Source: Escherichia phage Tls. Taken from it: 49,902 nt of DNA. The position numbers and the translations under genes are program-made. Below are positions 1,521 through 49,784 of this stretch, in pieces. Position 1 is the stretch's first letter. Each line of letters starts with the position of its first letter. Under the pieces are notes generated by a model. The model did not search any database and had not been told where the DNA came from. It saw only the letters and a list, made by a program, of their open reading frames with translations. Location: the sequence record AY308796.1; one strand, 5' to 3'.

Positions 1521-1566
1521 AAATAGCACTTTTTGTTAAAACTCAATTGGGGTGGTTTGACATAAT
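1521..1566 (+). promoter_or_regulatory. motif promoter: AAATAGCACTTTTTGTTAAAAC + 18 nt + TGaCATAAT
   Basis: 22-nt conserved motif 1521-1542; TGn-extended -10 CATAAT at 1561-1566. Confidence 0.55.
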
Positions 1567-1597
1567 TACCCCATTGAAACGAAATGAGGAAAATAAA

Positions 1598-1855
1598 ATG
1601 TTTGAACTGAAACGCGTAACTGTTGAGATCCTGAATGATGGCTCTTATGACGGCATGAAACACTTAACCTTCCCGATCCGCATTGAGAATTGCATTGATT
1701 ATGGGATTGAAGTTGGAATGGTTGACGTTCCGCTTGATGCACTTATCGCGGCTGGCTATGACAAAGAGAAAGGCCAATGTGCCGATATACCGGATAGCTA
1801 TGAAAGCGACACACATTTCCCGTTCACATATGGCGAATGCCGGATTGTTGATTGA
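1598..1855 (+). CDS. hypothetical protein (85 aa)
   Basis: In-frame ATG with SD gagga; ORF-track start 1547 is TTG lying inside the promoter. Confidence 0.55.
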   Translation: MFELKRVTVEILNDGSYDGMKHLTFPIRIENCIDYGIEVGMVDVPLDALIAAGYDKEKGQCADIPDSYESDTHFPFTYGECRIVD

Positions 1856-1864
1856 GGTTATAAA

Positions 1865-1945
1865 ATGAGCAGTTGGCACAATGAGCACGTAATGCAATTC
1901 TACCGACACAGAATAAAGAAAATGCTAAATAGCACGAATTGCTAA
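1865..1945 (+). CDS. possible micro-ORF (26 aa) ending ...NSTNC inside promoter motif
   Basis: ATG 1865 with SD gagg; stop TAA is the TTGCTAA of the motif; below ORF-track size cutoff. Confidence 0.25.
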   Translation: MSSWHNEHVMQFYRHRIKKMLNSTNC

Positions 1946-1972
1946 AACTAAATCAGGGGCATTTGTTATAGT
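1927..1972 (+). promoter_or_regulatory. motif promoter: AAATAGCACGAATTGCTAAAAC + 18 nt + TGtTATAGT
   Basis: Motif 1927-1948; -10 TATAGT 1967-1972. Confidence 0.55.
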
Positions 1973-2006
1973 GTCCCTAGTTTAGTTAAGCAAAGGAGAA
2001 TCAACA

Positions 2007-2573
2007 ATGTTAAGCATCGAAAAAATCAACTTCCCGATCACCTTTAAATTCTATCAGCCTGACATGCAAGTTACCTTCACCAGTAAAACGCGCGGAGAGT
2101 GGAAAGGTGGTGGAATAACAGGATTTAAACTTGAGTATTTCGTTAACAAGCACAACAACAAAAATCCAGATAATATCCCTGGCAAAGATGGGTATTACAT
2201 AATGGCGGCTTGTGGCAAAGAAGAAAAACGCGAGGATAACGATCTGTTAGACGCTTTGAAATATTTAAATATCAAGCCTGGCCAGGTCAATTTAAACGGT
2301 GCTGTATTCACTGCGTCAGTAGGTGCTAAAGATTACGATTACATTTGCAATGTTGAAAATATGCCAGTTGGCGCAACGCTGTTAGGTGTTCAGCGTGAAA
2401 ATGGCGAATGGGACGAGTTGAAATTTAAACCGCGCCGCATTGAAGTACACGACGATGTTATTTGCTTGCTTTCCGGTTATGCTGGTGGCTACAAGAGCGG
2501 TAATAATTACGGCGCTGAAATCAACATTAAGATCGGTACTAACGTAAAAATCAAAAACAGCACGAATTGCTAA
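2007..2573 (+). CDS. hypothetical protein (188 aa)
   Basis: ATG with SD aaaggag; stop codon TAA lies inside next motif copy. Confidence 0.6.
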   Translation: MLSIEKINFPITFKFYQPDMQVTFTSKTRGEWKGGGITGFKLEYFVNKHNNKNPDNIPGKDGYYIMAACGKEEKREDNDLLDALKYLNIKPGQVNLNGAVFTASVGAKDYDYICNVENMPVGATLLGVQRENGEWDELKFKPRRIEVHDDVICLLSGYAGGYKSGNNYGAEINIKIGTNVKIKNSTNC

Positions 2574-2600
2574 AACAGAATTTTGGGCTTGCTGTATAGT
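2555..2600 (+). promoter_or_regulatory. motif promoter (variant AAACAGCACGAATTGCTAAAAC) + 18 nt + TGTATAGT
   Basis: Motif 2555-2576 overlapping stop of upstream gene; -10 TATAGT 2595-2600. Confidence 0.5.
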
Positions 2601-2633
2601 AAGCTCATACCAAACAACGAAAGGGATCAAAAA

Positions 2634-2948
2634 ATGGAATTAGCACGTAACGCGGTTTATGGCTTACACCTCAAAGGCGGTAAAGGTTCAACATATGCGC
2701 ACCTGTTTCATGTTAACGAGCGCGGCCAGGTTGATATCGCAATGCATGTTGACCAACTGGTTAAAGGTAGTGAGTCCGACAAATTCAGACCGGATTTAAT
2801 TGAATATGATCACGCGTACAGCCACGACCACTGGCTATATGGTTATAAGTTTACAATGCTGGATAGCCATGTTATTGACACAAGCAAGTTAACAAAACGA
2901 GACTATAAGCGCATGGCTCGCAAAATCTTGAAGCAGAAAGCGCAATAG
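2634..2948 (+). CDS. hypothetical protein (104 aa)
   Basis: In-frame ATG with SD aaaggga; ORF-track start 2583 is TTG. Confidence 0.55.
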   Translation: MELARNAVYGLHLKGGKGSTYAHLFHVNERGQVDIAMHVDQLVKGSESDKFRPDLIEYDHAYSHDHWLYGYKFTMLDSHVIDTSKLTKRDYKRMARKILKQKAQ

Positions 2949-2988
2949 CACGAAATGTTAAGCGGTCATGTGTGCTGATTGGTACAAT
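2944..2988 (+). promoter_or_regulatory. degenerate motif promoter (AATAGCACGAAATGTTAAG) + TACAAT
   Basis: Partial motif overlapping stop of upstream gene; -10-like TACAAT 2983-2988. Confidence 0.4.
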
Positions 2989-3020
2989 GACCGCATCAAC
3001 CAACAAGAGAGGATAGAAAA

Positions 3021-3128
3021 ATGTCAAAAGAATCAATTAAGCAGTTTCTGAAATACGGCTCTATGATTGTGCTCGCTACCGTTGTGCTGGCTGGCATCGC
3101 GTATAGCATTATTGAGTTTGCGGGGTAA
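3021..3128 (+). CDS. small membrane protein (35 aa)
   Basis: ATG with SD gagagga; hydrophobic core IVLATVVLAGIAY; stop abuts next start. Confidence 0.4.
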   Translation: MSKESIKQFLKYGSMIVLATVVLAGIAYSIIEFAG

Positions 3129-3131
3129 TTG

Positions 3132-3695
3132 ATGTTTACGATCAACTTGTGGGGAAGGGATTATGTTAATCCCTATGTTGCGACAAAACAGCGTTTCGTT
3201 ATTTTCGACCTAGACGGCACATTGTCAAATGGTGAGCACCGCTTGCACCTGTTGCCAACAGTTGATTTGCATCTTACTGAAAGCTGGAGTGAGTTTAATC
3301 GCGCCGCAAAGGATGATTTACCATTCATGGATAACATAGCCGTTTGCAATGCCATGTTTGATGCCGGATACCTGGTTATCATCCTAACTGGTCGGAGTGA
3401 TGAAGTTGAGGCAGAAACGCGAGCATGGTTAGCTGAAAACGGCGTTTCTTTCGATTGGCTGATTATGCGCCGCGCGGAGGACAACCGGAAAGATACCGTG
3501 ATCAAAGAGGAAGTTTTACGGACTATCGGACTTGATCGCATTGTCGCATGTTGGGATGACTCACCAAACGTTATTTCACACCTGCGCGGCCTGGGCTTGA
3601 CTGTTTACCAGGTCATTGAATACGGCGAGCAGTTACACGATCACTTAAAGTCTCACGGCGTGGAGGAATTGAGCAATGACAGCAAAGTTAATTGA
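3132..3695 (+). CDS. HAD-family phosphatase resembling the 3'-phosphatase domain of T4 polynucleotide kinase
   Basis: HAD motif I FDLDGTL; downstream blocks ILTGR, RKDTVIKEE, WDDSPNV resemble Pnk phosphatase domain (from memory, not searched). Confidence 0.65.
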   Translation: MFTINLWGRDYVNPYVATKQRFVIFDLDGTLSNGEHRLHLLPTVDLHLTESWSEFNRAAKDDLPFMDNIAVCNAMFDAGYLVIILTGRSDEVEAETRAWLAENGVSFDWLIMRRAEDNRKDTVIKEEVLRTIGLDRIVACWDDSPNVISHLRGLGLTVYQVIEYGEQLHDHLKSHGVEELSNDSKVN

Positions 3696-3864
3696 AGATC
3701 GGCATGGTGATAATGTGCTGATTTACAAAAAAGGTGAATCAGTGTGGATTGATTGCAAACATTGGGATGATACAAATTTGCAGTTTCGCGGAATCTTTGA
3801 CAAGAAAGGCGCGTTGGAGTTAGCGGAGCACATCAAGCGGATTGCGGAAGAATTACCAGAATAG
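3676..3864 (+). CDS. hypothetical protein (62 aa)
   Basis: ATG overlapping previous gene end. Confidence 0.5.
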   Translation: MTAKLIEDRHGDNVLIYKKGESVWIDCKHWDDTNLQFRGIFDKKGALELAEHIKRIAEELPE

Positions 3865-3874
3865 AGGGTTTATT

Positions 3875-4060
3875 ATGTTGACTTTTATCTTGATCGCTAT
3901 CGTTTTAATTCTGTATGTTTGCGGCGCTTTCCTGATGCGAGCGCTACTAAAAGAGGCTGACGCTGATGATAAGGATAGTTGGAAGCCGATTGTTTTGTGG
4001 CCTGGCTATATCATCGTGCCGATTTACGAACTAATCCGCGATGGTGAGTTTAAGTGGTAA
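3875..4060 (+). CDS. small membrane protein (61 aa)
   Basis: In-frame ATG with SD agaggg; TM segment LTFILIAIVLILYVCGAFL. Confidence 0.5.
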   Translation: MLTFILIAIVLILYVCGAFLMRALLKEADADDKDSWKPIVLWPGYIIVPIYELIRDGEFKW

Positions 4061-4104
4061 ATAGCACTTTTTGCTAAAACTTGCTAAGGCACATTTGATA
4101 AAGT
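4059..4104 (+). promoter_or_regulatory. motif promoter: AAATAGCACTTTTTGCTAAAAC + 18 nt + TGaTAAAGT in hairpin loop
   Basis: Motif 4059-4080; perfect 8-bp inverted repeat aaggcaca/tgtgcctt (4086-4111) flanks -10 TAAAGT 4099-4104. Confidence 0.55.
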
Positions 4105-4137
4105 GTGCCTTGTCGAGACAAGCAAGGAGAATGACAC

Positions 4138-4392
4138 ATGAAACATTACAGGTGCGGCAGTCTTATTTATCGTGACGATGGGGTTAATATTTTTGTTGCA
4201 TATTATGACAAGATGGAATTTTTTGAATCCATTTACACAAGGCGCGTTTTTAATTCAATGGTTGATGCCGGATTCATGAAAGAGTGCGAGCCACCAAAAG
4301 CGAAGCCGTTTTATAAAAATGTTGATTTCTGGCATAACGCCGTATTGATCACAATTCTGTTAATTCTTTCTATGGTGTTTATTTTCTTATGA
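4138..4392 (+). CDS. hypothetical protein with C-terminal TM segment (84 aa)
   Basis: ATG with SD aaggaga; C-terminal hydrophobic tail. Confidence 0.55.
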   Translation: MKHYRCGSLIYRDDGVNIFVAYYDKMEFFESIYTRRVFNSMVDAGFMKECEPPKAKPFYKNVDFWHNAVLITILLILSMVFIFL

Positions 4393-4571
4393 TGCTTGAT
4401 AACCGTAAAGAGACTGAAAAAACGATCAGCTATCTGCGTGAGCTTGCCGATAGACTGGAAAACGGCGAAGTTGGATTAAATGATATTACTATTGAAGCGC
4501 GTAATATTTGTTGGAACGTTGAAGAAGAAACATTAACACTACAAACTGTTAAGGCGGTAAACAATGGCTAA
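4389..4571 (+). CDS. hypothetical protein (60 aa)
   Basis: ATGA start-stop overlap with upstream gene. Confidence 0.45.
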   Translation: MMLDNRKETEKTISYLRELADRLENGEVGLNDITIEARNICWNVEEETLTLQTVKAVNNG

Positions 4572-5139
4572 AATTATCATCCTAAATGCGCCTCCTGGTG
4601 CTGGTAAAGACACTATCGGCAAGATGATTTCTTTCTATTCGCCTGGTGAGCAATGCCGAATCATTAGCTTTAAAGAGCCAATGTTTGATATTGCATTGGC
4701 TATCCTGGGTAAAGAGAACTATCAGCGTTTCATGTTGGCTTATAATGACAGAGGGAAAAAAGAAAGGCCGCAAACATTCCTGATGGGTATGTCACCGCGT
4801 GAGTTCATGATCTGGATTAGCGAGGATGTAATCAAACCTAAATTCGGCAAGGATTATTTCGGCGTAAGGTTTAACCAGAAAGTAAAAGAGTGTGATGCTC
4901 CTGTTGTTTGCACTGATGGTGGTTTTCCAGATGAAATTATCGCTCTAATCAATGCTGGTAATGAGGTGAAGCTATGCCGCTTGCATCGCGACGGGTTCAC
5001 GTTTGCAGGTGATAGCCGCAACTACATTCGAATCAACCCCTATTACCATAAAAACGGATATAGCGAGCACGATTTTTATTTGACCGATAACAAGCCAATG
5101 GGAACCGTTAACACGATTATCAACATGTTCCTAAAATAG
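4564..5139 (+). CDS. P-loop kinase, dNMP-kinase-like
   Basis: Walker A NAPPGAGKDT near N-terminus, resembling phage deoxynucleotide monophosphate kinases; stop TAG inside next motif. Confidence 0.55.
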   Translation: MAKIIILNAPPGAGKDTIGKMISFYSPGEQCRIISFKEPMFDIALAILGKENYQRFMLAYNDRGKKERPQTFLMGMSPREFMIWISEDVIKPKFGKDYFGVRFNQKVKECDAPVVCTDGGFPDEIIALINAGNEVKLCRLHRDGFTFAGDSRNYIRINPYYHKNGYSEHDFYLTDNKPMGTVNTIINMFLK

Positions 5140-5179
5140 CACGAATTGCTAAAAATTACGCAAGGCCATTTGATATAGT
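5134..5179 (+). promoter_or_regulatory. motif promoter: AAATAGCACGAATTGCTAAAAA + 18 nt + TGaTATAGT in hairpin loop
   Basis: Motif 5134-5155; hairpin aaggcca/tggcctt; -10 TATAGT 5174-5179. Confidence 0.55.
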
Positions 5180-5219
5180 GGCCTTATTCAAGAGAAGCAA
5201 CCAATCAGAGGAATAAGCG

Positions 5220-5417
5220 ATGAAAATTAAATGCACAAAATCAAACACCATGAATCTGACAGTTGGCGCGATTTACCATATGGAAGAAGGTGTAAACGGG
5301 TTTAGCCCAACTGTTACGCATGAATACGGCGGTCAATTCTTCTTAAACGGTAAAGACGGATTATCTGTAAATGTTGGCTCTTTCGTACTTGCAGAGTTTG
5401 AGATCATGGAGGAATAA
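5220..5417 (+). CDS. hypothetical protein (65 aa)
   Basis: ATG with SD gaggaa. Confidence 0.5.
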   Translation: MKIKCTKSNTMNLTVGAIYHMEEGVNGFSPTVTHEYGGQFFLNGKDGLSVNVGSFVLAEFEIMEE

Positions 5418-5418
5418 A

Positions 5419-5583
5419 ATGTTCTGGATTCATTCGCCGCAAGGATTGCTTTATGTGCCTGGCGTTGAATTGGAAGAACGACGCGACGGCGACACGGTAA
5501 ACATCATAACGAAGGATTCAAAAGGCCATACGCTTAAAACGTATGTTTTTAACACTCCGGTTAAGGTTGAAAAAGATGATTAA
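5419..5583 (+). CDS. hypothetical protein (54 aa)
   Basis: In-frame ATG with SD ggagg directly after previous stop; ORF-track start is an upstream extension. Confidence 0.45.
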   Translation: MFWIHSPQGLLYVPGVELEERRDGDTVNIITKDSKGHTLKTYVFNTPVKVEKDD

Positions 5584-5719
5584 GATGTGGTTAATATTTA
5601 TCCTGCTTGTCATAATTGGCAATATTTTGATTGTCGCTGATTGTGTTCCTTTTGGTGGCACTGTTTTGGGTATGGCTGGTTATTACGTTGGGTATAAAGG
5701 GAATAAATTAGATGAATAG
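5576..5719 (+). CDS. possible small membrane protein (47 aa)
   Basis: ATG 5576; strongly hydrophobic; overlaps neighbours by 8 nt each; not in ORF track. Confidence 0.3.
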   Translation: MIKMWLIFILLVIIGNILIVADCVPFGGTVLGMAGYYVGYKGNKLDE

Positions 5720-5957
5720 AAAAATGCTGGTACGCGCATTCGCAAAGATTGCTAAAAGATGGGGTGATTCAGCTAAAACGCCTTACACGTTTAGCATGTA
5801 CGGTTACAAGAATGCTCGCGCATGGGGTCGCATCATTGCAGATAACTATGAATCCGAAATGCTGGAGGATTACGCAAGCTTGATTGATACGCCGCTAAAT
5901 GAATGGGGCCAGGCTGAATATGATTGTTTCGCAGAAGAAGAAATTTCTTGTTGGTAA
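5712..5957 (+). CDS. hypothetical protein (81 aa)
   Basis: ORF-track ORF with ATG. Confidence 0.5.
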   Translation: MNRKMLVRAFAKIAKRWGDSAKTPYTFSMYGYKNARAWGRIIADNYESEMLEDYASLIDTPLNEWGQAEYDCFAEEEISCW

Positions 5958-5968
5958 GGAGAATTAAC

Positions 5969-6481
5969 ATGATTGCTAAAAATAACCTTCACAACCTTTT
6001 AACTAGTGGTAATGATTATCAGGTACTGAATAGCACAAAAGACCGTTATTTTATAGAATGTGATAATGGTGATCGCATGTGGTTGCGTAAGGATTTTTTC
6101 GAAAGCGAACACCTAAGCAATGCAAAGCGGATCGCAGATGAAGCAAGCGCATTAGCAGAGCGTGAACGAATTCGCGATATAGTAGCGGAGCAGGTTAGAA
6201 ATTCTTGCTTGCCTGGTGGCGATATCTTCAAATCAATGCGCGGTGAAATGACGGTTGGAATTCAAGATCGCGTAATTGAAAAATCAGTTGATTATGTAAT
6301 TGAGAATGCGAAATTCAATGCGTTGATTGACTCAGAGCATAACGAATACGTCAAAGTATTAGAGCAACTGCGTGAAGTGCTGCGAGTGCCGGAAGGTGAA
6401 AATATTGTGACTCATGCAAAGGTTGTAAGAGCGTTGGCTGATGCTTTGCTTGACGTTTACCCAGGAATGAAGTGCAAATAG
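5969..6481 (+). CDS. hypothetical protein (170 aa)
   Basis: In-frame ATG with SD aaggag; stop TAG inside next motif. Confidence 0.55.
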   Translation: MIAKNNLHNLLTSGNDYQVLNSTKDRYFIECDNGDRMWLRKDFFESEHLSNAKRIADEASALAERERIRDIVAEQVRNSCLPGGDIFKSMRGEMTVGIQDRVIEKSVDYVIENAKFNALIDSEHNEYVKVLEQLREVLRVPEGENIVTHAKVVRALADALLDVYPGMKCK

Positions 6482-6521
6482 CACTTTTTGTTAAAACTTC
6501 CGCGAGGGCATTTGTTAAAGT
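6476..6521 (+). promoter_or_regulatory. motif promoter: AAATAGCACTTTTTGTTAAAAC + 18 nt + TGtTAAAGT
   Basis: Motif 6476-6497; hairpin gagggca/tgtcctc; -10 TAAAGT 6516-6521. Confidence 0.55.
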
Positions 6522-6555
6522 GTCCTCATTGAAGCGAAACACGGAGATTTAGAAA

Positions 6556-6765
6556 ATGGCTGTATACACTGGAAAGATGTTTGAAAGCGAAAACCCTATT
6601 TACGGCGGCACTTATGAGCTAATCATTGATGAAGATCGCGTAATTCTGGCTGATGACGATAACCAGGAATATTACGAAGTAGAAGCCGATAAATGGGATA
6701 ACGACGTTATGTTTCTTGTTGATAATAGTCGCATCAAGTTTTATGCAGTGGAGGAGGAAGAATGA
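6556..6765 (+). CDS. hypothetical acidic protein (69 aa)
   Basis: ATG with SD ggag. Confidence 0.5.
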   Translation: MAVYTGKMFESENPIYGGTYELIIDEDRVILADDDNQEYYEVEADKWDNDVMFLVDNSRIKFYAVEEEE

Positions 6766-7013
6766 TCACAATTAACCTATCAGAAGAACAAGCGAAATCA
6801 TTGTTGCGCGGCCTTGGCTGGCGAATGGGTAGCGGTAGCGAGGCGGTTGTAAACATCAAAGAGGAAGTAGCAAGAGAGCTTTTTGCACAGCTTGAGCATA
6901 AACTGATGCCAGCCTCAACAAGCGCGGCGGAGTTGGCTGTGTGGAGGCATGAAAACGGCCTTAATGAAATGGATGTTGAGAAGTGGAAGCGTAAAAACGA
7001 GGTGTTAGCATGA
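6762..7013 (+). CDS. hypothetical protein (83 aa)
   Basis: ATGA overlap with upstream gene. Confidence 0.5.
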   Translation: MITINLSEEQAKSLLRGLGWRMGSGSEAVVNIKEEVARELFAQLEHKLMPASTSAAELAVWRHENGLNEMDVEKWKRKNEVLA

Positions 7014-7348
7014 TTTACATTCACTCTTACGGAGTTGGCAAGTTTGGCAACAAACAGATCCGAAATATTCACGACACGCTCGATGAAGCAATTTCACAGC
7101 AACGCGTTTCAGGTGGAGTGGTTCAGGCGTTTGAGTCAGTGGAAAACTTAGAAAGCGAATGGATGGATCGCGAGCATATAAAGGATCTGATTGTTGATGA
7201 GGTGTCATGCCTGATTGACGATCTCACAACTGACTCGCCAGGGTCGCCGAGAAACTATGAGCCAGGCTCAACGCAATGGGATTGCTGGAAGGTCAAAACG
7301 CTAAGCAACATCCGTGATATTCTGGACGGAAAATTTAACGAAAATTGA
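7010..7348 (+). CDS. hypothetical protein (112 aa)
   Basis: ATGA overlap with upstream gene; followed by terminator. Confidence 0.55.
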   Translation: MIYIHSYGVGKFGNKQIRNIHDTLDEAISQQRVSGGVVQAFESVENLESEWMDREHIKDLIVDEVSCLIDDLTTDSPGSPRNYEPGSTQWDCWKVKTLSNIRDILDGKFNEN

Positions 7349-7357
7349 TAGCTTTTA

Positions 7358-7394
7358 AAGCGCCTCAATCGCATTCTAAGAGGCGCATTTTTTG
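7358..7394 (+). terminator. rho-independent terminator
   Basis: Stem aagcgcctc/gaggcgc followed by ATTTTTT. Confidence 0.6.
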
Positions 7395-7407
7395 GAAAGG
7401 TGATTCT

Positions 7408-7536
7408 ATGCCTGAATACATAAAACCGTCGCAGTGGTGCGCACAGAAGCAAGAGGAAGCGTTAGAGCGCGGCGACACTGACACGGCGTTGCACTACTTT
7501 GAAATGTTTCAACTTTGGAAATCAAGAGGACTGTAA
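7408..7536 (+). CDS. small hypothetical protein (42 aa)
   Basis: In-frame ATG with SD aaagg; ORF-track N-terminal extension would run through the terminator. Confidence 0.35.
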   Translation: MPEYIKPSQWCAQKQEEALERGDTDTALHYFEMFQLWKSRGL

Positions 7537-7537
7537 A

Positions 7538-7765
7538 ATGTTTGGACTTAATGAGGCTGAATATAACATTGTTAAACGTGCTGCAAAAGAGTGCATGAAG
7601 GATCTGAAAGTTGAAGTGACAAGCGGCAACAAATACGATCATATTGCGGCTGGAATTATCACCAAACATCACACGCCAATTTCTACCCTAATCACTCGAA
7701 CAAAGTTTGTATGGCTTGCTGGCTATATTGCTGGTCGATGGGGTAAGCCTGGCGAGTATGAATAA
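7538..7765 (+). CDS. hypothetical protein (75 aa)
   Basis: ATG with SD agagga, 1 nt after previous stop. Confidence 0.5.
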   Translation: MFGLNEAEYNIVKRAAKECMKDLKVEVTSGNKYDHIAAGIITKHHTPISTLITRTKFVWLAGYIAGRWGKPGEYE

Positions 7766-7787
7766 TAAGCACTTGAATCAATGAAGG

Positions 7788-7816
7788 TTGACGGCGTGTT
7801 GTCTGATTGGTAGATT
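7788..7816 (+). promoter_or_regulatory. sigma70-like promoter TTGACG-N17-TAGATT
   Basis: Read directly; followed by CGTGAACA box and a GC-rich ~130-nt leader before gene at 7948. Confidence 0.45.
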
Positions 7817-7947
7817 AAACGCCGTGAACATAAGAGACTCAATAGAGCAAAGCGCGGCGCGTTAGCCGTAAAGCCAAATCGGATGGGATTGCATTGCAAA
7901 TGACCGTCGCGGGAGCCGTAACCCGCAACCACTCAGGAGATTAATTT

Positions 7948-8704: not shown

Positions 8705-8721
8705 TTCAACGCAAAAAGATA

Positions 8722-15020: not shown

Positions 15021-15043
15021 AACGTTTAACAAAAAATGCTATA
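15021..15043 (-). promoter_or_regulatory. degenerate reverse-oriented copy of the 22-nt motif inside the late region
   Basis: Plus strand cgtttaacaaaaaatgctatatt resembles the reverse complement of AAATAGCACTTTTTGTTAAAAC; no clear -10. Confidence 0.3.
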
Positions 15044-15046
15044 TTA

Positions 15047-24905: not shown

Positions 24906-24927
24906 AAATAGCACAAAAGGTTAAAAG
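24906..24927 (+). promoter_or_regulatory. motif-like sequence AAATAGCACAAAAGGTTAAAAG overlapping the RBS of the J gene
   Basis: Matches the 22-nt motif in both half-sites but lies 3 nt from the start codon, so cannot be a promoter for J. Confidence 0.3.
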
Positions 24928-29165: not shown

Positions 29166-30221
29166 ATGAGCGATTTTAAAGTTTACACCTTTGACCAGTT
29201 AACCAATTATGAATATCACGATCCTAAAGGTTGGGCGGCTGAATACGTTAGCGGTTCAAGCCTGGCAGAAATCTTTGCAAGTTGTCCGGCAGCATGGAAA
29301 TACAGACCACGCGAGGAAAGCAAAGCGCTTGTTTTCGGTACGCAGTCACATACAAACTTTCAAAGCAGTGAGTTGTTCGCAAAAGAGTACCGACGAGCGC
29401 CAGCGCCGGAAGATTACGAAAACTTAATCACAAGCCAAACGGCATTAGCCAGCAAGTTAAAATCTTTTGGCCTGACTGGTGCAAGCGGGAAAACTTATCC
29501 AGACCTGATAAAAATGATGGTTGATTGTGGTGAGGATCTTAATGTTCAGTGGCTTATTGAAATGATCGCAGAGAGCCAGGCGCGAGCGGATAACGTTGAA
29601 TTGGTTCCGGCTAAAGATTACGACGCTTGCGTTACCATGCGCCGCGTACTGGAAAACATACCGGAACACAACGCTTGCATGAATAGCCCAACAGCACAAC
29701 GCGAGCTATCAATTTTCGGCACTATCAAAGGCGTGAAAGTCAAAGTAAGGATTGACCATGTTGATATTTGCAAGGATGTGCTTGCAACAGTGATTTCCGG
29801 CTATGATGGTGATGGTAATCCGGTATATGAAACAACGCGATTTGATGAAGCGATTGTGATCACGGATTATAAAACAACGTCAAGCGCTAACCCGTCAGAG
29901 TTTGCAAGGCTGGCATTCAATCATGGCTACTACTTGAAAATGGCATTGCAGCATGACCTATTCAAGAAAGCGTATCCAGAAGAAACACGCCCCGTAGTAG
30001 TCAGATTGCTGGCGCAGGAAAAGAAAGAGCCTTATTTACCGATTGCATACCGCATGACGGATGAACAATTGAAGATCGGACGGCTTCAATACATGAGTGT
30101 GATAAACCAGTTTGCAGAATGCCAGGCAAATGACAGTTGGCCTTCATACGCAAACGGAGAGCCTGAAATTGATCTTCAAACGCCTGATTGGGTTCGTCGT
30201 CAATACAAAGGTTTTTTATAA
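29166..30221 (+). CDS. PD-(D/E)XK-family recombination exonuclease (putative)
   Basis: ITDYKTT block consistent with a D/E..K nuclease core; followed by Erf and SSB; ATG with SD gagagg. Confidence 0.55.
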   Translation: MSDFKVYTFDQLTNYEYHDPKGWAAEYVSGSSLAEIFASCPAAWKYRPREESKALVFGTQSHTNFQSSELFAKEYRRAPAPEDYENLITSQTALASKLKSFGLTGASGKTYPDLIKMMVDCGEDLNVQWLIEMIAESQARADNVELVPAKDYDACVTMRRVLENIPEHNACMNSPTAQRELSIFGTIKGVKVKVRIDHVDICKDVLATVISGYDGDGNPVYETTRFDEAIVITDYKTTSSANPSEFARLAFNHGYYLKMALQHDLFKKAYPEETRPVVVRLLAQEKKEPYLPIAYRMTDEQLKIGRLQYMSVINQFAECQANDSWPSYANGEPEIDLQTPDWVRRQYKGFL

Positions 30222-30264
30222 ATAGCACTTTTTGCTAAAAAAGCCATTCGATGCGTGGTATACT
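30220..30264 (+). promoter_or_regulatory. motif promoter: AAATAGCACTTTTTGCTAAAAAAG + TATACT in hairpin loop
   Basis: Motif 30220-30241; hairpin gatgcgtg/cacgcatc; -10 TATACT 30259-30264. Confidence 0.5.
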
Positions 30265-30298
30265 ACACGCATCAACCAACGAGAGAGAGGAAATAAAA

Positions 30299-35181: not shown

Positions 35182-35214
35182 AAAAAACCTGGCACGATGA
35201 TAAACCATGCCAGG
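35182..35214 (-). terminator. hairpin plus T-tract between regulator and primase genes
   Basis: Stem cctggca/tgccagg with T6 on minus strand. Confidence 0.5.
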
Positions 35215-35223
35215 CCGGAATTT

Positions 35224-35832
35224 TTAGCAATCAGTGCTATCGACGGAAATCACAACGCGTTTCTTCTGATTGGCTTCCTTTGCTTTGCGCCGTTCTTCTT
35301 TCGCCTTTTCGCGTTCAGCTTTGCGCCGCGCTTTCTCCTTCTCGCGTTCTTCTGGACTCATAGACCGCAACGGATCGTAAGGCCGCACAAATCCTCTTGC
35401 TTCCGCTTCCTCTTTGGTTACAAATCGCATCAGCTTTCTGTTGCTGCAACGATTCTCTAATGGCTTGCCGTTATTATCAAATTTGATATCTGGACGGCAA
35501 TATGAAGCGCGGAAGCCGTTAAAACCTTTGCGTCGGTAATCTTTCTGGATCAGTTCAGCGCCTTTAGTTGAAATCATTCCGCGCTCTTTCCATCCCCATA
35601 CTGTTTTAAGGTTAACGCCAATTTCACGAGCCAGGGCAGCGCAACCGCCGTAAGCGTTGACAACTTCATCAAGCCGCGCTTTTAATCCTGCTCTTACTTC
35701 TTCCTTTAATACAAGATAACCGCTAACAGGTGCGCGACGTTTACGATCTTTACCACGTCTTACGCCGTTGTTACCATTGATTGTGCGTTTGTCGATTTCG
35801 CCAGTTGAGGAAGCAATTTTGATTTCGCTCAT
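35224..35832 (-). CDS. HTH DNA-binding protein (putative transcriptional regulator) with Lys/Glu/Arg-rich C-terminal tail
   Basis: Helix-turn-helix-like AALAREIGVNLKTVWGWKERG; divergent from helicase operon; SD aggtga. Confidence 0.55.
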   Translation of the reverse strand: MSEIKIASSTGEIDKRTINGNNGVRRGKDRKRRAPVSGYLVLKEEVRAGLKARLDEVVNAYGGCAALAREIGVNLKTVWGWKERGMISTKGAELIQKDYRRKGFNGFRASYCRPDIKFDNNGKPLENRCSNRKLMRFVTKEEAEARGFVRPYDPLRSMSPEEREKEKARRKAEREKAKEERRKAKEANQKKRVVISVDSTDC

Positions 35833-35840: not shown

Positions 35841-35885
35841 CTATAGCACTTTTTGCTAAAAAACTTGATTAAGTTTGTGTATGAT
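35841..35885 (+). promoter_or_regulatory. motif promoter: TATAGCACTTTTTGCTAAAAAAC + TATGAT
   Basis: Motif 35841-35864; -10 TATGAT 35880-35885, which overlaps the -10 of the divergent minus-strand promoter. Confidence 0.5.
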
Positions 35886-35909
35886 ATGCCGCAAATGGCA
35901 TTTAGTCAA
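35881..35909 (-). promoter_or_regulatory. sigma70-like promoter on minus strand TTGACT-N17-TATCAT for the HTH regulator gene
   Basis: Minus-strand -35 at 35904-35909 and -10 at 35881-35886. Confidence 0.45.
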
Positions 35910-37895: not shown

Positions 37896-38303
37896 ATGGT
37901 TACTGATAAAGGTGATTATCTGGAGTATTACGACAAGTCAGATCCAGACGATAGAAAGGAGGAATCGCACCAGGTTGATTCTTATTCATGGCTAACATAT
38001 GAGTTTCCCATGTGGCTTGTTTGGCACACTAAAAACGAGGGGAAGAAAACCATAGGCACAGCCGTAAAGGATCAGCAAGCGGGTGTGAAGAAGGGAGTTA
38101 GCGACATTCTAATCCTGACTGGTTTTATTGGCTGCAAGTATTCATTTATAGCCATTGAGCTTAAACGCGCCAACAAGAAAGGCACGAAGGTAAGCGACGA
38201 ACAAAAGGAATTCTTGCGACGTGTCAGAGAGTGCGGAGGATTTGCCGCCGTATGCTATGGAGTAGAGCAAGTAAAATTGGCTATCGCAGACGCTACAAAA
38301 TAG
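37896..38303 (+). CDS. VRR-NUC domain nuclease
   Basis: Pattern DILILTG...IAIELKRANKKGTKVSDEQKEFLRRV...GGFAAVCYG typical of VRR-NUC (D..E.K core); stop TAG inside next motif. Confidence 0.6.
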   Translation: MVTDKGDYLEYYDKSDPDDRKEESHQVDSYSWLTYEFPMWLVWHTKNEGKKTIGTAVKDQQAGVKKGVSDILILTGFIGCKYSFIAIELKRANKKGTKVSDEQKEFLRRVRECGGFAAVCYGVEQVKLAIADATK

Positions 38304-38343
38304 CACTTTTTGTTAAAACAGGCGCAACGGAATGCGCCATAAT
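38298..38343 (+). promoter_or_regulatory. motif promoter: AAATAGCACTTTTTGTTAAAAC + 18 nt + CATAAT
   Basis: Motif 38298-38319; hairpin ggcgca/tgcgcc; -10 CATAAT 38338-38343. Confidence 0.55.
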
Positions 38344-38374
38344 GCACCCATCAGAACGAAACGGAGAATTAACC

Positions 38375-39396: not shown

Positions 39397-39627
39397 ATGA
39401 GCATTCGATTAGCCGATCACATGAAATGGGATTTATTTGTCGGTATGACAATTCGCTTACTTGATAAGCATGGTTATAACGCTGATAAAATGGAGTTGAT
39501 AAACTGCCTGGATATGACATTTGACGAAATCAAAGTTGCTCCTTTGTACATGTGGGAAAGAAAAATTGAGCACGACCTGATACAATACAAACGCAGAGAG
39601 GGCGCACGATTTTTTAATGTGAAATAG
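39397..39627 (+). CDS. hypothetical protein (76 aa)
   Basis: ATG 1 nt after Dam stop; stop TAG inside next motif. Confidence 0.5.
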   Translation: MSIRLADHMKWDLFVGMTIRLLDKHGYNADKMELINCLDMTFDEIKVAPLYMWERKIEHDLIQYKRREGARFFNVK

Positions 39628-39667
39628 CACTTTTTGTTAAAACCCGCTACGGCGGGTTTTGTATTAT
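39622..39667 (+). promoter_or_regulatory. motif promoter: AAATAGCACTTTTTGTTAAAAC + terminator-like hairpin + TATTAT
   Basis: Motif 39622-39643; hairpin cccgc tac ggcggg TTTT (39644-39660); -10-like TATTAT 39662-39667. Confidence 0.5.
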
Positions 39668-39698
39668 GTTCTTAACGGAAAACAAGAGGATTTCAAAA

Positions 39699-40636: not shown

Positions 40637-40639
40637 TAA

Positions 40640-43123: not shown

Positions 43124-43499
43124 TGCTGAACTTTCTTTCAAAATAAGATCTATCAAATGCTGGCTTGCTGAATAATTCTTCATCGCTCATTTTCTCAATG
43201 TTCATCATCTCCCACACATAACGATTGGAATCACCTTCCAGGCTATGCAACTCAAAATTAAACGGCCTTTTCATCTTGTTTTTGCACCAGTACACGCAAT
43301 GAACGCCGTCAAGATATCCATAACCCATCATTCGCGCTATAAACTCTTTGCTTGAGCTTGAAGCGAAATAGCGGGGCGTTACCCCCGCATTTTTGGCGAG
43401 CCTTTCACATTCACGGTGACGGAATATAAATCTTGCTAACTCCTGGCGGTTGAATTTCTCGCGAGACTCGCAAAAGCGATACAGATCTAATAAGAACAT
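43107..43499 (-). CDS. hypothetical protein (130 aa)
   Basis: ATG with SD ggggt. Confidence 0.5.
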   Translation of the reverse strand: MFLLDLYRFCESREKFNRQELARFIFRHRECERLAKNAGVTPRYFASSSSKEFIARMMGYGYLDGVHCVYWCKNKMKRPFNFELHSLEGDSNRYVWEMMNIEKMSDEELFSKPAFDRSYFERKFSNANSA

Positions 43500-43501
43500 G
43501 A

Positions 43502-45082
43502 TTACCCCATTAACGCCGGATTTACATAAACAAATTTACCAACGCTGCAAACATAATTCTTTTCTTCAAGCATTGGCAATAATTGTTCCTCAATTCGTTT
43601 CATCACGCCTGATTGACCTGTAAACGGCTTAACCTTACGCGCACTTTCATAGATAGCTCTTGCATTGGTAACGCCTTTATTTTGACGTGAGATCTTAATG
43701 ATGATTTCAATTAACTTGCTCATTTCGGCATCATCGCCAGCGTGACCGGAAGCATTCGCGGCGTTGATATATGTTTTGCTTAATTCGCTGAACATCACCA
43801 AAGCCTCTTGCATTGTCTCAACTTCAATTTCTCGCGACTTTTGCGGCGTACCGTTTGGATTAAACCAATTGCGGATCGTGTGCAATACTGACGCAATGCG
43901 GATCACTTGCTTATCCATTTTACCCAAAGCACCACGCAACATTGTATGTGAATATTTCCCGCCGTCTGCTAAATCTGGCTCTAATTGCTGGCGAGCAATA
44001 TTAAGAACACGCATTGCAGACCGTGACGGCTTCAATACAACATTTTGCTCAGTCATGATGTTATGAATCAACTGGAAATATTGCGCCTTTAATTCTTTAT
44101 CAACTGGCGTGTAATCAAGATCACCATTTTCATCAATAAATACACGCTCGCCTAACATTGTTTTTTCACGTACAAGCAAGAAACGTTCACTAACACCGAT
44201 ACCCCGCGCCCCTGCATCCATGATCCCTTTTATCGTTTCATCCTGGGCAATTACGCTCATGCAGCCCAACGCAACAAAACTCATATTGTTTTCAGAGTTG
44301 GCGCGAGCTATTGAAACGTGTCCGGCGTCCCATGCTTTTAGAACCAATTCGCTGTTAGTCTTGCGATCACTATTAGCGTAAGTCAATCCGAGTAAGCTGT
44401 TGATGCTTGTTGCTTCATCGGAAATGACAGCAAAGTTACCCTGGCGATTGTTGATCTTTGCTAACCCTTCCGGCGTGGTGTCTGATACCGGAAAAACGAT
44501 ATCGCACATTTTTTCTAACTTTTCCTCTAATTCCTCCTTTTCCTCAAACAACGCCGCTAACTCAGTGCCGGAACGTTCAGCTTTCAATTCCTTTTCAACG
44601 CCTTTTAATTTAGCTGCGATCTTCTTTCGCTCTTTCTTGCGTTGTTCGTTGATTCGCTCAACTTCACAGACCATTGGCGCAATAGCAAGGCTGTTGATTG
44701 CTGATTTACCAGTTGACGGAGGCTGACTGGTTACAACATAAAGCGCAGTTGGTTGTTCAGTGCCGTGGTACTCAACCTGGAAACGTCCAACCATAGCGGC
44801 GGAAACGCAACCAATGAAATGCATATAGGCCGATGATTCAGGAAATTGAACAGATTGCGCAATGCTACGTGACAGTTTACCCACAACATCAACATCATTA
44901 CCCAAAGAGATCACAGGATAGCGGTCATTAGCGCCGTTGATATCCTTTACAGGTTCCCAAAAGCTGGACGATTGGCGGTATCCGTTAGACTGAATAGCAA
45001 CGCGAAGCGGCGATGTTCCCTGCGATTCTGCAATGGCTATAACTTGTTGAGGTGTCAATTTGTTGGTGTCAAAGTCAAACAT
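43502..45082 (-). CDS. large P-loop NTPase-like protein of unknown function (526 aa)
   Basis: Walker A-like QPPSTGKSA; Lys/Glu-rich coiled-coil insert; perfect SD aaggag; first gene after a motif promoter. Confidence 0.6.
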   Translation of the reverse strand: MFDFDTNKLTPQQVIAIAESQGTSPLRVAIQSNGYRQSSSFWEPVKDINGANDRYPVISLGNDVDVVGKLSRSIAQSVQFPESSAYMHFIGCVSAAMVGRFQVEYHGTEQPTALYVVTSQPPSTGKSAINSLAIAPMVCEVERINEQRKKERKKIAAKLKGVEKELKAERSGTELAALFEEKEELEEKLEKMCDIVFPVSDTTPEGLAKINNRQGNFAVISDEATSINSLLGLTYANSDRKTNSELVLKAWDAGHVSIARANSENNMSFVALGCMSVIAQDETIKGIMDAGARGIGVSERFLLVREKTMLGERVFIDENGDLDYTPVDKELKAQYFQLIHNIMTEQNVVLKPSRSAMRVLNIARQQLEPDLADGGKYSHTMLRGALGKMDKQVIRIASVLHTIRNWFNPNGTPQKSREIEVETMQEALVMFSELSKTYINAANASGHAGDDAEMSKLIEIIIKISRQNKGVTNARAIYESARKVKPFTGQSGVMKRIEEQLLPMLEEKNYVCSVGKFVYVNPALMG

Positions 45083-45109
45083 CTAAAAATCTCCTTCTTG
45101 TTGCCGCTA

Positions 45110-45155
45110 ATTATAACGGCAACATTCTACAGCCTTTTAGCAATTCGTGCTATTT
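45110..45155 (-). promoter_or_regulatory. motif promoter (minus): AAATAGCACGAATTGCTAAAAG + 18 nt + TATAAT in hairpin loop
   Basis: Motif reverse complement at 45135-45155; -10 at 45110-45115; hairpin gttgccg/cggcaac. Confidence 0.55.
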
Positions 45156-45754: not shown

Positions 45755-45786
45755 TTGATTTATCTCCTTTTGTTTTCGTTGAAAGC

Positions 45787-45832
45787 ATTATGCCGGATAC
45801 GTGATCCGGCGTTTTAACAAAAAGTGCTATTT
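45787..45832 (-). promoter_or_regulatory. motif promoter (minus): AAATAGCACTTTTTGTTAAAAC + 18 nt + CATAAT
   Basis: Motif reverse complement 45811-45832; hairpin gccggat/atccggc; -10 at 45787-45792. Confidence 0.55.
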
Positions 45833-46945: not shown

Positions 46946-46946
46946 A

Positions 46947-47168: not shown

Positions 47169-47199
47169 TTTTGATTCTCCATTTTGTTTATGTGAAAGT

Positions 47200-47245
47200 A
47201 TGATACCAATCAGAGCGATATCGTTTTTAGCAATTCGTGCTATTT
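47200..47245 (-). promoter_or_regulatory. motif promoter (minus): AAATAGCACGAATTGCTAAAAAC + TATCAT
   Basis: Motif reverse complement 47224-47245; -10 at 47200-47205. Confidence 0.5.
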
Positions 47246-48120: not shown

Positions 48121-48151
48121 TTCAAATTCTCCGGTTAGTTTCGATGAATGT

Positions 48152-48197
48152 ATTATGCCAAAACAAACCGGATCGCTTTTAACAAAAAGTGCTATTT
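48152..48197 (-). promoter_or_regulatory. motif promoter (minus): AAATAGCACTTTTTGTTAAAAG + CATAAT
   Basis: Motif reverse complement 48177-48197; -10 at 48152-48157. Confidence 0.55.
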
Positions 48198-48390
48198 AGT
48201 CAGATTCCATTACGATTACTGGTTCCAAACGCTCTAGCACAACCTTGAAATCTGCAAAGAAAGTCGGACGTCGCTTTGTCAATTCCTCATAGGTATCAGT
48301 TGCAATGCAAGCGCGATCACCTTCATAGCACACAACGCGTTTACTATTTGCGCGACTAATTGCAACAACTCGATAAGTATTCTTGATCAT
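48196..48390 (-). CDS. hypothetical protein (64 aa)
   Basis: ORF-track ORF with ATG; ATGA overlap with upstream gene. Confidence 0.45.
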   Translation of the reverse strand: MIKNTYRVVAISRANSKRVVCYEGDRACIATDTYEELTKRRPTFFADFKVVLERLEPVIVMESD

Positions 48391-48623
48391 TTCATCACCT
48401 CAATTGAATAAACATGTTCAACGCCTGGCGCGTATACCCGATTTTTATCATCAGTTACGCAAAGGCAAAGAGGCAAGCCGCGATTGTCTGTAATATGCAA
48501 GTGATTTTGTTTATCCATCAAAATTTCATATTCGCGATCTTCATCAAAGCGCCAAACGCTCAACATACCATCGCCCAGCATTTTTATTTTTGCTTTCTTG
48601 CCTACAAATTTTTGACCGATCAT
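48387..48623 (-). CDS. hypothetical protein (78 aa)
   Basis: ATG directly after upstream stop. Confidence 0.5.
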   Translation of the reverse strand: MIGQKFVGKKAKIKMLGDGMLSVWRFDEDREYEILMDKQNHLHITDNRGLPLCLCVTDDKNRVYAPGVEHVYSIEVMK

Positions 48624-48845
48624 TTATTTATCCTCCACAGTTTCAAATACGGTATTAAATGCCAGAAGTTTAAATTTCTTTCCAGGCTCAACCACTGCGA
48701 TATTCCAGGTAATTCCGCTGTGATATGCAACCATATCATCAATATCGACGGTGATTTGTGCGCCCTTCTTGAATAAGCCTTTTTCATGGCTCGCATCGCG
48801 TACAGTAACCACAGTTTCGAATTGCGTTTGTTGTTCAAAGTTCAT
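48624..48845 (-). CDS. hypothetical protein (73 aa)
   Basis: ATG with SD aggag; first gene after motif promoter. Confidence 0.5.
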   Translation of the reverse strand: MNFEQQTQFETVVTVRDASHEKGLFKKGAQITVDIDDMVAYHSGITWNIAVVEPGKKFKLLAFNTVFETVEDK

Positions 48846-48875
48846 CGTTGATTCTCCTGATTGGTTGATGTGTGT

Positions 48876-48921
48876 ATTATGCCGGAATAAGATCAGGCAC
48901 GTTTAACAAAAAGTGCTATTT
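48876..48921 (-). promoter_or_regulatory. motif promoter (minus): AAATAGCACTTTTTGTTAAAC + CATAAT
   Basis: Motif reverse complement 48901-48921; -10 at 48876-48881. Confidence 0.55.
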
Positions 48922-49060
48922 CAAAACACAAAAGCCCTGGCGCTAAAAGTATTATCTTTGACTATTTGCCGCGCCTCCAGGCAACGAGCTTTGCTGTGAA
49001 ATTCTTGCGTTGTTACCGCCTCACCTTGCATTGTTTGAAGCGCAATAATTAGCACGTAAA

Positions 49061-49279
49061 TCATTTTTCCTTTCCTTCATTGTATGCAAGGTTAATGTGA
49101 ATTGATGCACTTCCGACAATTTCAGCGGTTCCAATCTCAACCATGTATATCAATTCATGGCGGCTAAATGATGTGTATGCATGGAATCCGTTAACAATGC
49201 GCATAACCGGAAGTTCACTGTATTTTGTGTTAGGCACTGCATATTCATTGCCAGTGCTCTTAATGCGTATAAGAATCAT
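49061..49279 (-). CDS. hypothetical protein (72 aa)
   Basis: In-frame ATG with SD gggaga; ORF-track start 49300 is TTG. Confidence 0.45.
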   Translation of the reverse strand: MILIRIKSTGNEYAVPNTKYSELPVMRIVNGFHAYTSFSRHELIYMVEIGTAEIVGSASIHINLAYNEGKEK

Positions 49280-49280
49280 T

Positions 49281-49565
49281 TTATTCTCCCACGATCCCAA
49301 AGATAGAAATTATTGAGTTTGTACGACTCCGGCGATACTTGCGAATAACAACCGTTAAGTTTTCGCCTTGCTGATGACCTAACGTGATCGGCATTTCAGA
49401 ACCATCACCGAATTCATCACCAACCTTTTTGGGCTTTTCTCGCCACGCGCAAATGAAACCAAATTTATCACGCGTGATATAGCGGTATATGTTAGGAAGG
49501 GGAATCTTAACCCCTTCAAAGTCTACCGTTTGCGTGTAACTGCGGAAACTAAGCGTGGAATTCAT
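49281..49565 (-). CDS. hypothetical protein (94 aa)
   Basis: ATG with SD ggagagg. Confidence 0.5.
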   Translation of the reverse strand: MNSTLSFRSYTQTVDFEGVKIPLPNIYRYITRDKFGFICAWREKPKKVGDEFGDGSEMPITLGHQQGENLTVVIRKYRRSRTNSIISIFGIVGE

Positions 49566-49707
49566 AAATCACCTCTCCAAATTCTCCGATTACTTGCGCC
49601 TTGTAATATCCTCCGCGATTAGCCAACAAATACGCCTGGCTCAGTGTTTCAAGCGAGCGGGTTACTGGCTGGCTGTTTTCGTGTTCCCAGGTAATCAAGG
49701 TAGTCAT
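49549..49707 (-). CDS. small hypothetical protein (52 aa)
   Basis: ATG with SD gagga; first gene after motif promoter; not in ORF track. Confidence 0.4.
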   Translation of the reverse strand: MTTLITWEHENSQPVTRSLETLSQAYLLANRGGYYKAQVIGEFGEVIYEFHA

Positions 49708-49738
49708 TGCTAAATCCTCAGTTCATTTCAATGAAGTA

Positions 49739-49784
49739 ATCATAGCAATTCGTGGCTGATTGGTTTTAGCAAAAAATGCTATTC
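49739..49784 (-). promoter_or_regulatory. motif promoter (minus, variant): GAATAGCATTTTTTGCTAAAAC + 18 nt + TATGAT
   Basis: Motif reverse complement 49763-49784; -10 at 49739-49744. Confidence 0.5.

Follow-up and report, generated by a model that had tools for sequence, protein, structure and literature searches.

Direct repeats of Escherichia phage TLS as candidate class II marbox promoters of the MarA/SoxS/Rob type

Introduction

The closest described counterpart of the repeated element analysed here, a 22-nucleotide (nt) motif scattered over the genome of Escherichia phage TLS, is found in the class II promoters of the host mar/sox/rob system. In these promoters a forward-oriented box lies over the -35 region, with sites placed near -41 (-41.5 at micF), no -35 hexamer can be recognised, the -10 and the start site are canonical, and the bound activator keeps region 4 of sigma-70 off the -35 DNA. 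At micF the box faces the promoter as CACT-7X-AAA. Among the activators, Rob is constitutive and responds directly to signals, MarA and SoxS being inducible. The classical marbox is the 20-mer AYnGCACnnWnnRYYAAAYn. Other definitions in use are 5'-gcannwwntgnnaaa-3' (PMC12052159) and 5'-GCAHWWWWTGYYAAA-3' (PMC6900184).

The window of this study is the complete TLS genome (Drexlerviridae; AY308796.1, 49,902 bp), which has 92-97% identity to the Tlsvirus phages LL5, Sazh and U136B. The motif itself is known: in their 2024 re-annotation of TLS, German, DeGiulio, Ramsey, Kropinski and Misra described aaATAGCACnnnTTGnTAAAA as a direct repeat of 21 nt present at 21 places, of which 18 lie between genes, co-oriented with transcription and about 76 nt from start codons (PMC11447400). 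The same authors found only three sigma-70-like promoters in the whole genome, proposed stoperators, enhancer sites or UP elements as roles for the repeats, and listed repeat function as an open question on T1-like phages (PMC11447400). Their element and our 22-mer are one and the same, and the novelty claimed for it by an earlier sequence-only reading of this genome is therefore lost to that publication; a fixed distance to a -10, a likeness to the marbox and a hairpin go unmentioned in it, and its list lacks the copy at 38298. What we add is the reading of the repeat as a class II marbox, a link that we did not find in the literature searched. On the evidence of the sequence we lean, with modest confidence, towards the view that the repeats form the upstream half of sigma-70 class II promoters activated by host proteins of the MarA/SoxS/Rob type.

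Results

A box, a fixed spacer and a -10 hexamer form one promoter unit

Over the whole genome the nine-nucleotide core AAATAGCAC has 14 exact occurrences against 0.83 expected, and the 22-mer, at up to three mismatches, 18 times against 0.12 expected, a count that none of 100 shuffles reached. A weight matrix adds two further copies, a degenerate one at 2943(+) and an antisense one at 15044(-). All 17 positions given by the sequence-only reading were recovered, three minus-strand starts being 1 nt off and its copy at 2944, the degenerate one, being placed here at 2943; the copy at 35242(-), which corresponds to DR10 of the 2024 paper, is an addition to that list.

The layout of the unit is regular. 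A 20-bp asymmetric box (motif positions 3-22, ATAGCAC-KWW-TTGYTAAAAC) is followed by an 18-bp spacer and a -10 hexamer, in front of which TGn is often found. A conserved C-A start comes 7 nt further, and then an A-rich leader of 24-29 nt, a Shine-Dalgarno sequence and ATG. Start positions were predicted from the conserved C-A, 7 nt past the hexamer; with its A as +1 the box would span -50 to -31, centred at about -40.5, and the 22-mer -52 to -31. The discriminator is C-rich (CCCC before the start; cassette positions 47-63, e.g. 1567-1583), and the predicted transcripts would open with a G-poor leader whose first bases are a conserved AUCRAAAC.

The spacing proposed earlier withstood the scan, the best -10 hexamer lying exactly 18 nt past the motif in 15 of 18 copies and 17 nt past it in two, with no usable -10 at copy 24906. 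The extended -10 ascribed to every copy proved less general: a true TGn stands in 9 of 17, and in three more TG abuts the hexamer. The absence of a -35 at 17 nt is real, as the hexamer position 17-18 bp upstream of the -10 reads AAAACn and the nearest TTGYTA is, as had been noted, 22 bp away; a standard -35/-10 scan of positions 1-9000 misses every cassette and finds 15 sites against 21 +/- 4.4 in shuffles. Likewise, all 18 promoter copies point the same way as the gene that follows. Fixed spacing, C-A start, leader with Shine-Dalgarno sequence and ATG, and co-orientation thus bear out the suggestion that motif and -10 make up a single promoter unit devoid of a -35. Nothing in our analysis shows the distinct temporal promoter class that had been suggested along with it.

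The box matches the marbox, and its matrix picks out host marboxes

The definition gcannwwntgnnaaa has 19 exact matches in the TLS genome against 2.0 expected, and 17 of the 19 are the repeats. The copies of the TTT type match GCAHWWWWTGYYAAA exactly, and the classical 20-mer, at one mismatch or fewer, gives 21 hits against 1.5 expected, which cover all promoter copies. In E. coli (NC_000913.3) the micF box, ACAGCACTGAATGTCAAAAC, is followed by 18 bp, the hexamer TAGAAT and, 8 nt later, the annotated RNA start, so that box and hexamer are as far apart as in the phage; of the 20 positions of the marRAB box (reverse strand, ATGCCACGTTTTGCTAAATC), 15-16 agree with the phage forms. The orientation also agrees with micF, GCAC being distal and AAA proximal to the core promoter in 18 of 18 promoter copies.

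The comparison holds in the reciprocal direction. A matrix built from 17 TLS repeats alone was run over both strands of the micF and marRAB regions, and its top hit was the true marbox in each, at 8.2 bits (next hit -8.9) and 12.4 bits (next hit -3.9), respectively; in a control genome 1-3 x 10^-5 of all positions score as high. For fumC and inaA, the hit ranked first or second upstream in gene orientation lies 17-18 nt from a predicted -10-like hexamer. The cassettes therefore agree with class II promoters in sequence, orientation, position and spacing, in pairing a -10 with an absent -35, and in cross-recognition, the start being a predicted one. The motif is not UP-like, as had been proposed earlier, and not evidently phage-specific: some of its G and C positions are invariant, and it resembles a host marbox in its sequence and asymmetry, in the way it faces and in how far it lies from the -10.

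The cassette is conserved across T1-like phages

Scanning IMG/VR for the exact core returned 118 stretches, the multi-copy ones coming from contigs of about 27-53 kb. From the T1-like contigs and from T1 itself 286 non-identical cassettes were gathered, and the best -10 falls at 18 nt in 204 of them. Compared column by column, the 227 cassettes whose -10 stands at 18 nt have G at -14 in 87% of cases, a hexamer yATAaT and conserved C at -1 and A at +1. T1 (Tunavirinae), Klebsiella phage cp5 (Webervirus) and a Veterinaerplatzvirus (Braunvirinae) carry 16-22 copies each, and the consensus ATAGCAC-KWW-TTGYTAAA with its spacing is common to Tlsvirus, Tunavirus, Webervirus and Veterinaerplatzvirus, even though these phages differ in most of their early proteins. 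Erwinia phage phiEt88, an unrelated temperate myovirus sharing only head genes and taken as negative control, gave one marginal hit.

Some of the records matching TLS carry unexpected names. Near-identical genomes bear the name 'Streptococcus phage MBBL140', with 97% identity across 92% of the query, and other matching records are named after Campylobacter or as 'Vibrio phage Vc1'. The hosts so named are probably incorrect, as would be expected if T1-like phages often contaminate laboratories.

A covarying hairpin accompanies most cassettes

Motif positions 20-62 fold with a mean of -11.4 kcal/mol, against -5.3 in shuffles and -7.7 in chimeras made of 5' and 3' halves from different cassettes, and the sense strand folds better than the antisense, the reverse of what base composition alone predicts. 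In 15 cassettes with the loop TTTGWTAWAG a 7-bp helix is 96% paired, with compensatory changes in six of its seven pairs; covariation scores 0.644, whereas shuffles give 0.224 and none of 500 attains the observed value, and slid registers give at most 0.22. This aligned helix contains G-U pairs whose counterparts on the opposite strand would be A-C mismatches. The strand bias is visible there and in folding energies compared with those of shuffles; the stems of minimum-free-energy folds, by contrast, do not differ between strands in their number of G-U pairs.

The inverted repeat that the sequence-only reading had assigned to the spacer is thus real and covarying, but only a subset lies wholly within the 18 nt. 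In the commonest form the arms occupy -24 to -18 and -7 to -1 and bracket the -10, as at 4086..4111(+), where AAGGCACA pairs with TGTGCCTT, the extended -10 sits in the loop and the 3' arm extends to -1. Other cassettes have the hairpin inside the spacer, with the -10 as its A/U-rich tail, two of these being the published terminators T57 and T62; the next 8 nt hold a mean of 3.3 T after spacer-confined hairpins and 1.1 after those bracketing the -10. Because the 3' arm ends at -1, before the predicted start, the hairpin would be absent from RNA started at its own promoter and only read-through RNA from the upstream gene could form it. The stop codon of that gene lies in the motif or just before it, and the hairpin may act on the read-through RNA by termination, 3'-end stabilisation or insulation.

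Cassettes along the genome

On the plus strand, ahead of the structural operon, the first cassette is that of gp04 (1521..1573; motif 1521-1542, 18-nt spacer, TGa-CATAAT 1561-1566, predicted +1 A at 1573, ATG 1598), with a hairpin around its -10. Those of gp06 (1927..1979; motif of GAA type 1927-1948, TGt-TATAGT 1967-1972, ATG 2007) and gp07 (2555..2607; motif 2555-2576, TATAGT 2595-2600, ATG 2634) follow; gp05 and gp06, both with the tail NSTNC, terminate inside the gp06 and gp07 motifs, respectively. The degenerate cassette of gp08 (2943..2995) reads CAATAGCACGAAATGTTAAGCG, 18 nt, TGg-TACAAT (2983-2988) and ATG at 3021. Next come gp12 (4059..4111; motif 4059-4080, TGa-TAAAGT 4099-4104, ATG 4138), gp15 (5134..5186; motif 5134-5155, TGa-TATAGT 5174-5179, ATG 5220) and gp20 (6476..6528; motif 6476-6497, TGt-TAAAGT 6516-6521, ATG 6556), the last motif promoter before the structural operon.

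Further plus-strand cassettes precede gp52 (30220..30271; motif 30220-30241, 17-nt spacer, TGg-TATACT 30259-30264, fitting start codon 30299), the helicase gene gp58 (35841..35892; motif 35841-35862, 17-nt spacer, TATGAT 35880-35885, ATG 35921), gp60 (38298..38350; motif 38298-38319, spacer hairpin GGCGCA/TGCGCC, CATAAT 38338-38343) and gp63 (39622..39674; motif 39622-39643, TATTAT 39662-39667), whose terminator-like spacer hairpin is the published T62 (39643-39660). The published starts of gp52 (30251), gp60 (38231) and gp63 (39666) lie upstream of the transcription starts predicted from their own cassettes, and in-frame alternatives at 30299, 38375 and 39699 have the usual leader and Shine-Dalgarno spacing; therefore the three proteins are probably shorter than annotated.

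On the minus strand the primase gene gp56 has its cassette at 35190..35242 (motif 35242-35221, TATCAT 35202-35197 in the loop of the published T57, ATG 35165). The others belong to gp71 (45103..45155; motif 45155-45134, TATAAT 45115-45110, ATG 45082), gp73 (45780..45832; motif 45832-45811, spacer hairpin GCCGGAT/ATCCGGC, CATAAT 45792-45787, ATG 45754), gp76 (47193..47245; motif 47245-47224, TGg-TATCAT 47205-47200, ATG 47168), gp79 (48145..48197; motif 48197-48176, TGg-CATAAT 48157-48152, ATG 48120), gp82 (48869..48921; motif 48921-48900, CATAAT 48881-48876, ATG 48845) and gp86 (49732..49784; motif 49784-49763, TGc-TATGAT 49744-49739, ATG 49707), the latter being the first promoter of the right arm and lacking a clear hairpin. 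The NSTNC tail of gp77 also ends in a motif, that of gp76, so that the three open reading frames (ORFs) with this ending reported earlier, gp05, gp06 and gp77, are all genuine; gp57 ends in a variant of it, DSTDC, with its stop inside the copy at 35224-35242(-), the primase promoter.

At 35841-35909 the canonical promoter P57 (-) and the helicase promoter (+) share overlapping near-palindromic -10 elements, TATGATA and TATCATA, and T1 has the same divergent arrangement at 36442-36511. Since their -10s overlap, the two promoters should compete for RNA polymerase, and could form an early switch.

The late operon is free of motif promoters, as had been observed. Its two copies are orphans with no usable -10, one at 24906..24927(+), 2 nt ahead of the tail-fibre start codon (24930), the other antisense at 15023..15044(-), in the stretch that separates gp35 from the major capsid gene. 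A T1 copy at 15088(-) has the same place and orientation as TLS 15044-15023, and T1 has further orphans at 18852(-) and 8360(+), one about 14 nt before the small terminase start codon. If an activator binds them, orphan copies could be obstacles to transcription and not promoters. In the regions of the structural and lysis genes (8.8-28.7 kb and 41.8-43.0 kb) there are no motif promoters and no listed canonical ones, and many published terminators lie there; read-through from the 6476 promoter and antitermination are both possibilities for their transcription.

Discussion

Proposed activation by host MarA/SoxS/Rob-type proteins

The properties of the TLS repeats suggest how they could work. 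By analogy with micF-type promoters, one monomer of a host AraC-family activator would bind each box, the candidates being constitutive Rob, MarA or SoxS when induced, and RamA in Klebsiella and Salmonella. The distal GCAC would take its first helix-turn-helix (HTH) and the proximal TAAA its second, and the bound protein would touch both the alpha C-terminal domain and region 4 of sigma-70, held off the -35, RNA polymerase being recruited to the -10. Promoter strength would then follow the mar/sox/rob state of the host, as set by bile salts, salicylate or oxidants. As such an activator would be a host protein already present at injection, the cassettes would be early promoters with no need for a phage protein. 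Conserved host proteins are favoured because the motif remains unchanged across subfamilies and its class II geometry is exact, and a profile of the MarA, SoxS and Rob N-terminus found no counterpart in the six-frame ORFs of TLS, T1, cp5 and the Veterinaerplatzvirus (best E = 0.18, no consistent locus).

Several observations weigh against host activation. A Keio single-knockout screen with LL5, which is more than 90% identical to TLS, yielded only lipopolysaccharide genes, tolC, secB and ppiB; rob, marA and soxS were not recovered, and thus no single host activator is essential for plating. This outcome could fit redundancy of the three activators or basal activity of the extended -10, and fits a phage-encoded factor equally well. 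In unstressed cells little MarA or SoxS is present and Rob is for the most part inactive, yet T1-like phages thrive in plain broth. Besides, the phage motif is stricter than the marbox consensus, with A5, T13, T17 and A21 nearly invariant, in counts inflated by the score threshold applied when sites were collected; the extra constraint could mean that a very strong site has been selected for or that another protein reads it, and the phage does offer conserved DNA-binding candidates in gp57 and gp70. Finally, binding, transcription or start-site data for T1-like phages were not found in the literature searched.

Alternative binders and roles

These same points bring in the alternative that a phage-encoded protein, gp57, gp70 or another, binds the repeat, either as an activator of middle-class promoters or in a later, stoperator-like shut-off, the likeness to the marbox being mimicry or coincidence. 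We regard this as unlikely without being far-fetched. The gene gp57 lies behind P57, one of only three canonical sigma-70 promoters, as would be expected of an immediate-early regulator, and the -10 of P57 overlaps that of the motif promoter at 35841; gp57, gp70 and gp73 are conserved between TLS and T1, the LL5 screen gave no host transcription factor, and both the positions invariant beyond the marbox consensus and the partial palindrome TAGCA-N5-TGCTA, centred at about -42, would suit a dedicated factor, the latter a dimer. However, the motif is strictly oriented and about half of its copies break the palindrome (TGTTA), unlike a dimer site, and it persists unchanged across subfamilies whose proteins have diverged. 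A match to the marbox in sequence, asymmetry, orientation and an exact 18 bp would arise by chance with a probability of about 10^-5, as a rough estimate. Most small early-type genes of both arms lie behind motif promoters and would all have to await the phage protein, whereas a purely repressive role would leave the promoters at 38298 and 45832, which have neither a -35 nor TGn, with no means of recruiting RNA polymerase.

Pfam and PHROGs searches of 20 conserved or candidate proteins returned only a weak Cro-like HTH in gp57 (Cro/C1-type; YdaS-like match below the Pfam cut-off; phrog_2856); besides gp57, gp70 and gp73, ten conserved small proteins showed no HTH family. In its AlphaFold model (predicted local distance difference test, pLDDT, 90) gp70 would be a single winged helix, with no significant neighbour in the PDB and a non-significant match to the MotA fold (E = 1.6), and gp73 is modelled as all-beta; neither model suggests a MarA-like fold, and PDB sequence searches with the two were empty. 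In the region 43107-45082(-) the gene gp70 lies directly downstream of that for the DUF3987 ATPase gp71, and the gp70 family is confined to T1-like phages.

A second alternative dispenses with any activator: the repeat would be an UP-like or bent-DNA element, or a displaced -35 (TTGYTA), read by alpha and sigma-70 to boost an extended -10. The A/T tracts phased about 10 bp apart, the UP elements proposed by the TLS authors, and the TGn of about half of the copies together with the G at -14 in 87% of the related cassettes speak for it. Nonetheless, we give it little credit, as the invariant G6, C7, C9 and G15 are foreign to UP elements, the GAA-type copies have no T tract, and the motif lies at -52 to -31 rather than -59 to -38 and with no -35 downstream. 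TTGYTA stands 22 bp from the -10, which puts it out of phase with sigma region 4 by half a turn of the helix; no -10 exists 17 bp past TTGYTA, and shortening of the spacer by a cruciform is geometrically impossible.

The hairpin raises the further question of whether motif and stem together are an RNA signal on polycistronic transcripts, for processing, termination or nut-like antitermination, the -10 being incidental. Its covariation, its tolerance of G-U pairs on the sense strand only, the better folding of that strand than composition predicts and the identity of two hairpins with published terminators are what such a signal would show. We nevertheless judge it very improbable: the distance from motif to hexamer stays at exactly 18 nt wherever the hairpin sits, as would be expected if the geometry of the DNA, rather than the fold of the RNA, is what is constrained; conservation extends to the C-A start and to G at -14, no Rfam match was obtained, and the cassettes at 49784 and 47245 lack a hairpin. 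Another host regulator such as Lrp, whose consensus from systematic evolution of ligands by exponential enrichment (SELEX) in the literature, YAGHAWATTWTDCTR, fits motif positions 4-18 with 13 of 15 matches for the TTT/TGCTA form, is the least credible binder of all, since the GAA and TGTTA forms match at only 11-12 of 15, strict orientation, invariant C9 and the fixed class II distance would go unexplained, and lrp was not recovered in the LL5 screen.

Other candidates were tried and rejected. A sigma-54 promoter (TGGCAC-N5-TTGCW, with its elements spaced as GG-N10-GC and the start some 12 nt past GC) does not fit, the motif TAGCAC-N3-TTGC being 2 nt too short with AG in place of GG, and the conserved -10 and start lying 18-30 nt further downstream. 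Sites for CRP/FNR, Fis, IHF, OxyR and ArcA and the boxA/nut sites were also compared and did not match.

Implications of a marbox reading

Reading the repeat as a class II marbox gives a specific and testable answer to the question left by the TLS authors, and supplies about 18 promoters with predicted start sites in place of the three published. More tentatively, and with rather less than even confidence, it can be speculated that the Drexlerviridae have wired nearly all of their early and replication promoters to host MarA, SoxS, Rob or RamA, so that the phage would read host stress and could titrate the regulators. If this were true, phage development would read bile, salicylate, oxidants and some antibiotics, and about 20 near-consensus marboxes in each replicating genome could leave less of the regulators for efflux and porin genes. 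TolC, the receptor of TLS and U136B, belongs to the same regulon, which would place receptor supply and phage expression on one host switch. A tie between early phage expression and multidrug-resistance regulators would in turn bear on phage-antibiotic combinations and on TolC-targeting phages such as U136B, and the cassettes would constitute a set of compact, strong MarA/SoxS/Rob-responsive promoters. Should host activators play no part, then a phage-encoded protein must imitate the geometry of the marbox, which would be of interest in itself.

Comparison with known systems

Among phage systems, the middle promoters of T4, served by MotA and AsiA-remodelled sigma-70, likewise combine a normal -10 with a conserved activator box in place of the -35, and the MotA box contains TGCT. 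That box is centred at -30, 11-13 bp from the -10. In TLS, by contrast, TGCTA ends 22 bp before the hexamer (22-23 bp against about 12 bp for the MotA box), and a MotA-type middle promoter was rejected on this ground. The Mor- and C-dependent promoters of Mu have an activator site at about -51 to -33 and no -35, a span similar to that of the TLS motif; their sites are dyad-symmetric and bound by phage-encoded dimers, and TLS has no annotated Mor/C homologue. The stoperators of mycobacteriophage L5, a comparison raised by the TLS authors, are also oriented asymmetric sites present in many copies genome-wide, but they lie in transcribed regions, keep no fixed distance from a -10 and need a phage repressor, whereas the distance of the TLS repeat is fixed.

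The host class II promoters of micF, inaA, fumC and lpxC P2 stand closest. Phage cassettes and host promoters are alike in the asymmetric 20-bp box in forward orientation, with distal GCAC and proximal YAAA, in its position over the -35 with a centre near -41, and in the absent -35 alongside a normal -10 and start, the 18 bp from box to -10 being as at micF. Unlike their host counterparts, the phage cassettes occur in a virulent phage as some 17-22 near-identical, near-consensus copies per genome, TGn or a G at -14 is frequent in them and the -10 usually lies inside a covarying hairpin. Host boxes are single and degenerate, scoring -8 to 12 bits on the phage matrix, where the phage copies score 26-37.

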